Below are positions 2,242 through 4,360 of a DNA stretch of 39,482 nt, piece after piece. Both the position numbers and the translations under genes were made by a program. How positions within the stretch are numbered: position 1 is the stretch's first letter; each line of letters opens with the position of its first letter. Source of the DNA: an uncultured Candidatus Saccharibacteria bacterium (GTDB taxonomy: Bacteria; Patescibacteriota; Minisyncoccia; Minisyncoccales; UBA1441); assembly GCA_964386365.1 (NCBI GenBank), contig CAYLQR010000027.1:1-39482 (forward strand), written 5' to 3'. The notes beneath the pieces were generated by a model. That model was not told the DNA's origin. It did not search any database and was given only the letters and a program-made list of their open reading frames with translations.

Positions 2242-2334
2242 CGATGTCGGCTCAAGTTATCCTGGAGCTGGAGAAGGTTCCAAGGGTTCGGCTGTTCGCC
2301 GATTAAAAACTTACGCGAGCTGGGTTTAAACCGT

Positions 2335-3028
2335 CAAATTGGCGGCTTTCCCGAGCAATCGGGATTGAAAAAGTTGACTCATATCGATGAATTCCTTACA
2401 TACTTGTAACACAACCTGTCGTATGTTAGGATAATATCGAGGGAAGTTGATTATGTCTAAGATTATATCCGTAACTAAGAGAGCATATTTAGCAGGTTTT
2501 CTTGATGGAGATGGAAGTATCTATGTGAGATTAAAACCAAATTCGAGTTATAAATATGGTTTTCAAATTTCTCCATATATAGTATTTTTCCAATCAGCGA
2601 AATCAGTCAAGAACTTCAAGAAAGTTTGCGCTCTAATAAATTGCGGATACATCCGTAAACGAAAAGATGGTATATTAGAATATACTATTGGTAGAAAAGA
2701 CGAAATCATAAAATTTCTAGAATTAATCAAACCATACTTGATCTTAAAGAAAAAACAGGCTGATTTAATGATCAGAATAATAGAACAGAAAAATAAAGTA
2801 AAAAGTAGAAATGACTTTAATAAGTTAGCACGATTGATAGATAGATTTCGAGAACTAAACTACTCTAAAAAGCGTAAAAGACATAATTTAACCCCGTAGA
2901 GACTGATCCTTAAATGGAGAGAGTGATTCATATTAAAGAATTGCTAATACGTCAACCCCCTATGAAACAGGAAAAACTTCATGGGGTGATGGTATAGTCC
3001 ATACACTTAGTAATAAGTGAGAAATATG
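2335..3028 (+). mobile_element. Group I intron (IA3-like) at 23S position L2593 with a homing endonuclease ORF
   Basis: Splits AAACCGT^CGCGAGACAGG. P1 CCGTCA/TGGCGG has U.G at the splice site and the intron ends in G. Core motifs: AATATCGAGGGAAG, CCCGTAGAGACT, TACGTCAAC, GGTATAGTCC. Same site as the I-CreI intron. Confidence 0.94.
2453..2899 (+). CDS. Single-motif LAGLIDADG homing endonuclease (I-CreI-like)
   Basis: AYLAGFLDGDGSI motif, FFQS, LILKKKQA; ~148 aa; lies in intron loop L6. ATG at 2453 is preferred over TTG at 2447. Confidence 0.93.
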   Translation: MSKIISVTKRAYLAGFLDGDGSIYVRLKPNSSYKYGFQISPYIVFFQSAKSVKNFKKVCALINCGYIRKRKDGILEYTIGRKDEIIKFLELIKPYLILKKKQADLMIRIIEQKNKVKSRNDFNKLARLIDRFRELNYSKKRKRHNLTP

Positions 3029-3090
3029 CGCGAGACAGGTTGGTCTCTATCTACCGCAGGCGTCGAGTCTTGAAAGAAGTCATCCCTAGT

Positions 3091-3898
3091 AAGAAAATTG
3101 CTACTTCATGGAGCAATCCATGATGACAATCTGACTAATAACGATGAAGCCTTCATTATTTATTTGGTTGCAGAGATTGTAAACTTTGACGGTCCAAAGA
3201 TTTTACGATACAATTCGCTTGAGGACCAAATAAATATTAAGGGAATATCGTGGGAAGACTCATAAAAAATTTACAAGATGTTGATTTAGCTTACATCTCT
3301 GGATTTCTTGATGGCGATGGAAGTATCATGGTCCAAGTCAAGAAAAACAGGGATCGAAAGAATGGTTGGCGTTTAATGTTCACTATCTGTTTTTATCAGG
3401 ATAGTCGACATGAAAAACCGCTTTTCTGGATTCAAAAAAAACTAGATATAGGATATATTTCTAGGCGAAATGATGGCATGACCGAGTTGAGAATTAATGG
3501 ATATAGAAGAACGAGAGAAATTCTAGAAGCATTACATCCCTACATCAAGTTTAAAAAGAAACAGGTAAAATACGTTTTGAAGATTCTAAGTATTCTGGAG
3601 CCTTATAAAGGATTGTCCGGGCTCAAGAAAAATGACAGAGTCGCCATAGCTAAAGCCATTTTAGCTGCTAGACAAGAAACGTATCAATCTGGGTCTAAAA
3701 GAATGGAAAAGCTGAAAGCTGACTTGAAAAAAATTGTAGAAATGTAAATTTTTATGTGTCCCCGTAACGACTTTTTCTAAACTTGCCAAAGTTTAAGTTT
3801 AGAAAGGATGGTGGTTAAAACCCATCATAATACGTCAGCTCCTGCTAAAAGCAGGATGAAGATATAGTCTGAACCCGTAGAAATATGGGAAAAATTTG
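3091..3898 (+). mobile_element. Group I intron (IA3-like) at 23S position L2656 (sarcin-ricin loop) with a homing endonuclease ORF
   Basis: Splits CCCTAGT^ACGAGAGGACCGG. P1 TAGTAA-GAAAA-TTGCTA has U.G at the splice site; terminal G at 3898. Core motifs: CTGAC..TACGTCAG (P3), AATATCGTGGGAAG, CCCGTAACGACT, GAAGATATAGTCT. Confidence 0.92.
3250..3747 (+). CDS. Single-motif LAGLIDADG homing endonuclease
   Basis: AYISGFLDGDGSI motif, CFYQD, PYIKFKKKQV; 165 aa. The GTG start lies within the intron core, so the start is uncertain. Confidence 0.92.
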   Translation: MGRLIKNLQDVDLAYISGFLDGDGSIMVQVKKNRDRKNGWRLMFTICFYQDSRHEKPLFWIQKKLDIGYISRRNDGMTELRINGYRRTREILEALHPYIKFKKKQVKYVLKILSILEPYKGLSGLKKNDRVAIAKAILAARQETYQSGSKRMEKLKADLKKIVEM

Positions 3899-4178
3899 AC
3901 GAGAGGACCGGGATGAACTAACCTCTGGTGTACCAGTTGTTCCGCCAGGAGCATTGCTGGGTAGCTATGTTGGGCAGGGATAAGCGCTGAAAGCATCTAA
4001 AGTGCGAAGCCCTTCTTAAGATTAGGACTCATTAGATTCCTGGAAGATTACCAGGTTGATAGGCCTCAAGTGTAAGTGCTGCAAGGCATTTAGCTGAGAG
4101 GTACTAATATCTAACTTTTCTAATTTTCTTATTGGCTAGTAATTAGCAATTATCAATCCCCAGAGAAGCAAAAGTGCG

Positions 4179-4296
4179 CTCTGGTGGCGGCTAAACCGGA
4201 GTTGTCCCACCTGATCCCATTCCGAACTCAGTCGTGAAATACTCCCGGGCTGATGATAGTGGTTCATCCGCGAAAGTAAGACGCCGCCACCAGAGC
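4179..4296 (+). rRNA. rrf: 5S rRNA
   Basis: CCACCTGATCCCATTCCGAACTCAG..GTGAAA, GATGATAGT, GCGAAAGTA; terminal helix CTCTGGTGGCGG/CCGCCACCAGAG. Ends approximate. Confidence 0.93.
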
Positions 4297-4360
4297 GCAT
4301 TTTTTATTTCAAGAAGAATAAATTTTTCAAAAGCTATTCTTTTGGCTATAATATAAAAGT

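Follow-up and report, generated by a model that had tools for sequence, protein, structure and literature searches.

The 23S rRNA gene and its interruption

The window, by which we mean the whole stretch of 39,482 nucleotides analysed here, opens within a 23S rRNA gene that matches the Rfam LSU model from model position 531 onward (1634.9 bits); a 5S gene lies 3' of it at 4183–4292. Near its 3' end the 23S gene is interrupted by a group I intron of 808 nt at 3091–3898, on the + strand like every other feature described below. The exon piece upstream (3029–3090) corresponds to E. coli positions of about 2594–2656 and lies between an intron at L2593 and the 808-nt insert; it ends in CCCUAGU, which makes up the 5' half of the sarcin-ricin loop. 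The 5' exon end at 3090 reads ...CAUCCCUAGU, and the upstream exon piece, taken to its 3' end at 3090, reads ...GUCAUCCCUAGU. The 3' exon (3899–4125), from A2657 to the end of the gene, starts ACGAGAGGACC and, when the 3' end was searched alone, matched LSU model positions 2683–2925 with 187.3 bits.

By blastn, position 3899 aligns with position 2656 of an E. coli 23S copy of 2903 nt (L001:1011–3913), which we take to be A2657 in the usual 2904-nt numbering, an offset of +1; the residue numbers used for the sarcin-ricin loop (G2655, A2660, and G2661) are likewise assumed. The joined flanks, CCUAGU (CCTAGT) followed by ACGAGAGGACC, are identical to the 17-mer of E. coli. The insert lies between U2656 and A2657 (site L2656), inside the sarcin-ricin loop. 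The original prediction had described an 808-nt insert splitting this loop at CCUAGU, and the alignments of the flanks to E. coli and to the LSU model agree with it, 3899 falling at 2656/2657. As intron and 3' exon both start with A, the junction may be shifted by a single base (A|A), and 2657 is an equally valid position. The same 23S gene carries two other introns, including the one at L2593 with its own LAGLIDADG enzyme.

Fold of the ribozyme

The architecture of the intron was templated on the Rfam alignment of a second, ORF-less intron, located 1.1 kb upstream in the same 23S gene and matching RF00028 (Intron_gpI) with 64.3 bits; the helices were fixed via 15 ORF-less relatives that share the L2656 site. 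P1 (3087–3103) joins UAGU|AA (3087–3092) to UUGCUA (3098–3103) with all six positions paired, and the wobble pair U3090.G3100 stands at the 5' splice site. The P2 hairpin (CAUGGA-GCAA-UCCAUG, 3107–3122) is closed by a GNRA loop and is paired throughout (6/6), all six pairs covarying in relatives. The 5' strand of P3, CUGAC (3131–3135; 5/5 paired), is followed by J3/4 UAAUA and by the 5' strand of P4, ACGAUG (3141–3146; 6/6 paired). P5 (3150–3242) consists of CCUU (3150–3153) and AAGG (3239–3242), with 4/4 paired, and bears a long extension containing a conserved pairing of GGUCC (3191–3195) with GGACC (3223–3227). In the 3' strand of P4, UAUCGU (3246–3251), the fourth pair is A-U in the window as opposed to the family's usual G-C. 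P6 is formed by GGG-AA-GAC (3252–3259; 6/6 paired) and GUC-CCC (3758–3763), the latter followed by J6/7 GUA.

The 5' strand of P7, A(C)GACU (3767–3772), belongs to the presumed guanosine-binding helix; four of its four pairs plus one are formed, and it is invariant in relatives. Two further hairpins follow, P7.1 of 11 bp (3774–3805; 11/11 paired) and P7.2 (3807–3826; 5/5 paired), and J7/3 AAUAC stands just before the 3' strand of P3, GUCAG (3834–3838). The P8 hairpin UCCUGCU-AAA-AGCAGGA (3840–3856) is complete (7/7 paired). J8/7 UGAAGAUAU and the 3' strand of P7, AGUC(U), together at 3857–3870, agree with the Rfam group I consensus, to which J8/7 AAGAUAUAGUC is identical. The P9 hairpin CCCGUA-GAAA-UAUGGG (3874–3889) has 6/6 pairs, of which five covary, and the terminal G (omega-G) at 3898 marks the 3' splice site.

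Departures of the window from the family consensus in P3, P4, and P6 are compensatory. Extra P7.1 and P7.2 hairpins between P7 and the 3' strand of P3 are the mark of subgroup IA, which the window intron, with P7.1 at 3774–3805 and P7.2 at 3807–3826, appears to resemble. A different P3, pairing UUGACG (near 3185) with CGUCAG and accompanied by a 'P2.1' helix, was overturned by the alignment of relatives in favour of the P3 strand at 3131–3135; in that alignment the region in between falls inside the P5 extension. For P10, inspection of the window by eye gave no convincing pairing between the P1 loop and the 3' exon ACGAG.

A scan of the 808 nt with RF00028 gave a match at 3767–3890, which spans P8, J8/7, and P9, with 30.4 bits and an E value of 9.4e-6. 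The match is significant by its E value, but the score stays under the Rfam gathering cut-off of 50 bits, as do those of ORF-less relatives (30.1–47.9 bits). In the window the low score, and the restriction of the match to the 3' part, arise because the endonuclease ORF splits the core. The five ORF-less relatives tested all matched RF00028 over its full length, with 30.1–47.9 bits and E values of 1e-9 to 2e-4.

A family of introns at L2656

Relatives were sought with a family pattern of 17 letters and a variable gap, comprising the end of J8/7 and P7' and, 15–45 nt on, the 3' exon. A species scan, with one genome per species across bacteria and archaea, matched at least 120 loci. By a test of the 3'-exon context, the 120 matches listed comprised 67 interrupted 23S genes, 2 uninterrupted 23S genes, and 51 chance matches, the last being expected of such a pattern. 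Loci from the phylum and from the species scan were combined, with L010 left out for missing downstream sequence. In the combined set at least 86 loci, the window included, are interrupted exactly before ACGAGAGG, which leaves at least 85 loci besides the window whose intron occupies exactly L2656, nearly all of them in records named for CPR/Patescibacteria lineages; the last intron nucleotide is G in 86 of the 86 loci listed, among them G3898 of the window, the terminal G of the original prediction. Identity in the 3' exon is about 80–87% throughout and does not set apart the records that bear the labels Gammaproteobacteria, Pseudomonadales, or Elusimicrobiota (L059, L116, L140, L105, and L060) from those of CPR.

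The 5' splice site could be placed in 81 of the 86 listed loci by comparing identity without gaps and by requiring a complementary stem. Among the 81 placed introns, 18 are 296–459 nt long and gene-free, 4 are 536–618 nt, and 57 are 685–889 nt, mostly with open frames of about 155–205 codons; in L109 and L116 the placement of the 5' splice site looks wrong, and both were excluded from later counts. The covariation alignment took in 15 of the 18 listed ORF-less introns, the three longest being left out, and 36 pairs. Across those 15 introns, 99.3% of 538 pair cells are paired as compared with 84.4% after shuffling and 35–42% with slid partners; 18 of the 36 pairs are altered on both sides, and none of 500 shuffles matched any observed measure. 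The signal is strongest in P2, P3, and P9, while P4, P6, and P7 are nearly invariant and thus carry little information either way. With the anchor for the 3' strand of P3 chosen independently of the 5' strand, a count over 70 listed introns found all five P3 pairs in 61 and four of five in the other 9, with at least four pair types at the first position.

The four exon pairs of P1 and the U.G wobble are formed in 58 of 58 listed relatives placed by anchors, and in three relatives the exon CAGU is matched by the guide GCUG. The wobble at the splice site (U3090.G3100 in a P1 of 6 bp) and the P3/P4/P6/P7 core, each part of which is paired in the window, were both claimed for this insert at the outset, and the covariation above now stands behind the core. 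That 3091–3898 is built like a group I intron is confirmed, with a fit far beyond chance.

Might the ribozyme be unable to fold alone and rely on the LAGLIDADG protein, or on a host factor, as a maturase? The RF00028 scores below the Rfam cut-off, the short P1 with only 4 exon base pairs, and the failure to find a P10 would suit such dependence, and homing endonucleases may also act as maturases according to the accessible text of PMC11270868. Yet the 18 listed gene-free members keep a fully covarying core, which argues that the protein is not generally required in cis, and the core helices of the window are intact. We consider protein-dependent splicing unlikely and continue to read the insert as a mobile group I intron.

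The endonuclease gene and a probable start codon in the core

Loop L6 holds a gene (3250–3747) for a predicted single-domain LAGLIDADG_1 homing endonuclease of 165 aa, the probable GUG start of which overlaps P4'/P6. The protein matches Pfam PF00961 (LAGLIDADG_1) with 53.1 bits against a cut-off of 23.1, through a single motif at residues 16–109 of 165 aa. Matches among PDB entries included I-CvuI (2.5e-14), I-CreI (about 5e-12), and I-MsoI, with E values of 1e-10 to 1e-14 overall. In the printed alignments GFLDGDGS of the window stands opposite GFVDGDGS; the Asp of the motif is kept, as are the Gln and Lys columns, the active-site roles of these three residues being those of I-CreI. In 43 alignments of at least 120 aa with other L2656 enzymes from the listed loci, identity was 40–59% (median 49%), as compared with only 33% between the window's L2656 enzyme and its own L2593 enzyme; the higher identity within a site than across sites indicates that the enzymes form a site-specific lineage. 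The L2656 enzymes are putative small homodimeric meganucleases with a universal target.

The start codon was followed through those listed introns whose open frame spans 140 codons or more (n = 51). In 47 of the 51 the frame is in phase with a core GUG, within the invariant CC-GUG-GGAAG at the P4'/P6 junction; in 40 of these 47 the core GUG is the sole ATG, GTG, or TTG ahead of the LAGLIDADG helix, and in 34 introns an in-frame stop lies four codons 5' of it. P4' contributes its final two bases to the GUG and P6 its opening base; the AAGG located 7–10 nt upstream belongs to P5, as its 3' strand. The endonuclease start codon very probably lies within the ribozyme core, as judged from sequence, and translation of the endonuclease would most likely initiate at this GUG of P4'/P6. 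Folding of the ribozyme and initiation of translation are then probably mutually exclusive on one RNA molecule. The core GUG start codon may be an unreported detail.

It is tempting to go further and propose that, with the gene fused to the core, each RNA serves as ribozyme or as message and never as both, and that, as the sarcin-ricin loop can form only after excision, this switch also times the first activation of translational GTPases by the 50S subunit. We hold that joint proposal to be quite unlikely as a whole; if it is true, the mobility of the intron, its splicing, and the late maturation of ribosomes would be inherently coupled in organisms that have one rRNA operon. The mobile intron with an endonuclease of its own is the reading we carry forward.

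Distribution and the host genome

The assembly that contains the window totals 424,771 b in 37 contigs with 96% completeness, and genome sizes in the phylum sample range from 0.4 to 2.1 Mb; by these sizes, and by the record names of relatives with the same intron, the host, at about 0.42 Mb, is very likely a member of CPR/Patescibacteria. This draft assembly yielded one 23S 3' end; a second rRNA operon, being a repeat, could have been collapsed, which makes a single copy less than certain. Because the intron sits in the only 23S copy found, its splicing must work for ribosomes to be made. Of 401 genomes from the phylum, 20 carry the L2656 intron, the window's own among them, and these fall in 20 of 320 genera; the reversed-pattern control yielded 1. 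An uninterrupted loop was found in 248 of the 401, and both states were found in two genomes (G224 and G304). Within the host's order the intron is present in one of five relatives, and the loop is uninterrupted in four of the five.

These numbers bear on the suggestion that the intron has been co-opted as a checkpoint, the timing of its excision controlling activation of the 50S subunit. In favour of a checkpoint, the intron physically splits the loop that activates GTPases, it occupies the only 23S copy found, and the start codon with its upstream AAGG lies in core strands, through which folding and translation could be coupled. A host function sits poorly, however, with so patchy a presence (20 genomes with the intron against 248 uninterrupted across the phylum, and one against four in the host's order), with the ORF-less and shortened forms, such as arise when a selfish element is acquired, degenerates, and disappears, and with the two further introns in the same gene; and no regulatory element was seen. 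The suggestion in the original prediction that the intron could gate 50S maturation amounts to no more than the truism that an rRNA intron has to come out, and nothing was found that points to regulation. We regard a checkpoint as very unlikely. The patchy presence, together with the ORF-less and shortened forms, is better matched by a selfish element that is acquired, decays, and is lost again than by a host function.

RNA and DNA contigs

One RNA contig (run X9, depth 41.8, shorter side 40 letters) joins 3090 to 3899 exactly, as splicing would; on the other hand, it differs at 3082, was matched at 90% likeness, and comes from a lake metagenome, and it may be the rRNA of an intron-less relative. 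The contig is compatible with splicing without being proof of it, and is unassignable to an intron-bearing genome. Most of the other joints (3063 to 3899, 3073 to 3899, and others) have helix-95 letters of their own and were set aside as rRNA from other organisms. Cover of the intron in RNA runs X9 and X10 is near absent beside very deep exon cover, a comparison that is uninformative because exon depth sums many organisms. RNA contigs of low depth (2–4) lie inside the intron and represent a variant about 97–98% identical, the same one that is found with the intron in DNA run X5; their origin may be intron RNA, the precursor, or DNA carried over.

Ligation also matters for the notion that the insert is an intervening sequence excised by RNase III, with no ligation and a fragmented 23S rRNA as the outcome. 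A break within the sarcin-ricin loop inactivates ribosomes, as cleavage by alpha-sarcin does, which counts against excision without ligation, and the insert has the hallmarks of a group I intron and not a simple long stem. Intervening sequences are known in bacterial 23S genes and, in the accessible text of PMC11270868, are suggested for some CPR insertions at 23IS2 and 23IS4, but the same text assigns 23IS14 to group I introns instead. We judge this explanation extremely improbable.

Finally, a chimeric assembly or a defunct rRNA gene at this locus is scarcely credible, even for a draft of 37 contigs, given that a Logan contig of 13,718 nt from run X1 (which may be the source sample) covers 2258–4300 with zero differences, that DNA run X5 holds a relative about 97% identical with the same intron-exon junctions, that the exons match the LSU model (1634.9 and 187.3 bits), and that the genome assembly shows no further 23S 3' end.

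Proposed mechanism and significance

The best explanation overall, and one in which we place high confidence, is a mobile group I intron inserted between U2656 and A2657 of the sole 23S gene found, a selfish homing element that has to be removed. Splicing most likely takes the usual two-step guanosine route. The proposed order of events is as follows: the intron would be transcribed as part of the pre-23S RNA, and P1 would arise from pairing of the end of the 5' exon, UAGU, with the internal guide GCUA; in it U3090.G3100 would mark the 5' splice site. The P3–P9 core would fold, and a free guanosine held in P7 would attack after U2656. Next, the terminal G3898 would occupy the guanosine site, and ligation of the exons would restore CCUAGUACGAGAGGACC, and with it the sarcin-ricin loop. 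The 165-aa enzyme encoded in L6, of the I-CreI/I-MsoI/I-CvuI type, would by analogy act as a homodimer; it would be expected to cut intron-less rDNA at the sequence that codes for the loop, whereupon repair would copy the intron in (homing).

Because the sarcin-ricin site is invariant and demanded by ribosome function, it offers a safe and universal target to a selfish element. The presence of the LAGLIDADG gene points to selfish homing as the reason that an intron lies in an invariant sequence, and selfish targeting accounts for the location better than does a benefit to the host. In genomes with apparently one rRNA operon, selfish introns reach even the most conserved and critical loop of the ribosome. 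Such introns lengthen and split rRNA genes, which misleads the annotation of rRNA in CPR bacteria and hampers the design of primers for them.

Comparison with known systems

Group I introns in bacterial 23S genes have been known from sites L1917, L1931, L1951, and L2593, in Coxiella, Thermotoga, Simkania, and cyanobacteria; these are other sites, none of them within the sarcin-ricin loop. In other respects they are comparable to the window intron, being likewise of the self-splicing type, with LAGLIDADG genes, and at conserved 23S sites.

The closest precedent is the survey of 348 CPR 23S genes by Tsurumaki et al. (2024, J Bacteriol; PMC11270868), cited here from its accessible text, in which the frequent insertion sites 23IS1–14 were defined. 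LAGLIDADG_1 genes were located there mainly at 1917, 1931, 1952, 2593, 2604, and 2657 (23IS6–8 and 12–14), and the group I introns at 23IS9, 10, 11, 13, and 14 were described as previously unreported in bacteria (PMC11270868). Within the one-nucleotide sliding ambiguity, 23IS14 (position 2657) is the L2656 site, and it has in common with the window a group I-like insertion, a single-domain LAGLIDADG_1 enzyme, and, very probably, CPR-type hosts (PMC11270868). We find no essential difference between the two; in its accessible parts, the main text of that article is silent on the splice junction, the secondary structure, and the start codon of 23IS14. The suspicion, voiced in the original prediction, that L2656 might be a new site does not hold, as 23IS14 was catalogued in 2024 (PMC11270868, accessible text) and the family is present in 20 genomes of the 401 from the phylum and in at least 67 loci of the species scan. 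The phenomenon has been published before, and the insertion site is known for CPR.

The only CPR homing endonuclease to have been tested biochemically, according to the accessible text of the same survey, is I-ShaI of 23IS7, which cleaves insertion-site DNA and dimerises (PMC11270868). Like the window enzyme, it has one LAGLIDADG_1 domain and resides in a group I-like insertion of a CPR 23S gene; unlike it, it belongs to site 23IS7, with its ORF central in a 691-nt insertion (PMC11270868, accessible text). For CPR 16S insertions, self-splicing was backed by metatranscriptomics in the 2015 Rifle study, as related in the accessible text of a review (PMC9698310). Among the papers listed by a literature search on L2656, 2656, 2657, or sarcin-ricin group I introns, none but PMC11270868 was relevant, and 2655, 2656, and 2657 are absent from the accessible main text of an archaeal survey (PMC6125680).

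To this record the present analysis adds the exact junction, a fold backed by covariation, the distribution, and the start codon of the endonuclease embedded in the core. Beyond bacteria, the nearest counterparts are the I-CreI and I-CeuI introns of the Chlamydomonas chloroplast (L2593), along with I-MsoI and I-CvuI, which likewise combine a group I intron in LSU domain V/VI with a single-domain LAGLIDADG enzyme. The Chlamydomonas chloroplast introns differ from the window intron in site (2593 as against 2656), in target sequence, and in residing in an organelle and not in a free bacterial genome. In the position of the endonuclease gene the two agree, since the gene for I-CreI likewise lies in L6.

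Probable endonuclease start codon in the ribozyme core

The endonuclease reading frame of the L2656 introns, the group I introns of the 23S sarcin-ricin loop, very probably begins within the ribozyme core (3239-3259 in the window, with relatives L006 to L144). In 47 of 51 of these introns among the matches listed, the GUG of the invariant core motif CC-GUG-GGAAG (P4'/P6) was in phase with the endonuclease frame; in 40 of the 47, again among the matches listed, this GUG was the sole canonical start ahead of the LAGLIDADG helix. The AAGG located 7-10 nt 5' of the core GUG is the 3' strand of P5 in this family.

Sequence variation was also observed where the intron meets its exon. At three relatives' loci (L016, L059, and L138) the 5' strand of the loop reads CAGU rather than UAGU, and the intron guide reads GCUG rather than GCUA; this is a compensated exon-intron change. 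An additional small GC-rich hairpin, AAGCCC...GGGC, was present in the P1 loop of L049, L007, L122, L062, L005, L006, L008, and other loci, where it separates the splice site from the guide.

Distribution and host genomes

Genuine L2656 introns are also present in entries that bear the names uncultured Gammaproteobacteria, Pseudomonadales, and Elusimicrobiota (L059, L116, L140, L105, and L060), that of L116 on a 615-kb chromosome. These non-CPR names could be mistaken, or else the family could extend outside the CPR; comparison of the exon sequences fits either reading. Two genomes of the phylum sample carried interrupted and uninterrupted sarcin-ricin loops on separate contigs (C56 and C72 in G224; C47 and C50 in G304); a second rRNA copy, a mixture of strains, or wrongly binned contigs could explain this. 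The assembly to which the window belongs comprises 424,771 bases, is rated 96.4% complete, and falls at the small end of its phylum sample (range 0.4 to 2.1 Mb).

Multiple introns in 23S genes

Further group I-like introns (Rfam scores of 26.8-51.5 bits) were located upstream in the same 23S gene in L019 (1-137 and 758-1050), L005 (34-357 and 742-1105), and L023 (720-1011); multi-intron 23S genes are thus common in this group. Two additional group I introns interrupt the 23S gene of the window itself. The first, at 1962-2241, is 280 nt long, contains no ORF, and exceeds the cut-off of the Rfam Intron_gpI model with 64.3 bits. Its 5' exon ends in GGCACCU, at U2500 in 23S numbering, and its terminal G is followed by CGAUGUCGG. 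A DNA contig of a relative in sequencing run X5 joins position 1961 directly to 2242. The other, a 694-nt intron at 2335-3028, scored just 19.8 bits with Rfam, over its 3' part; it encodes its own LAGLIDADG_1 protein at 2447-2899 (Pfam, 51.1 bits), and lies between ...AAACCGU and CGCGAGACAGG, the classic L2593 site.
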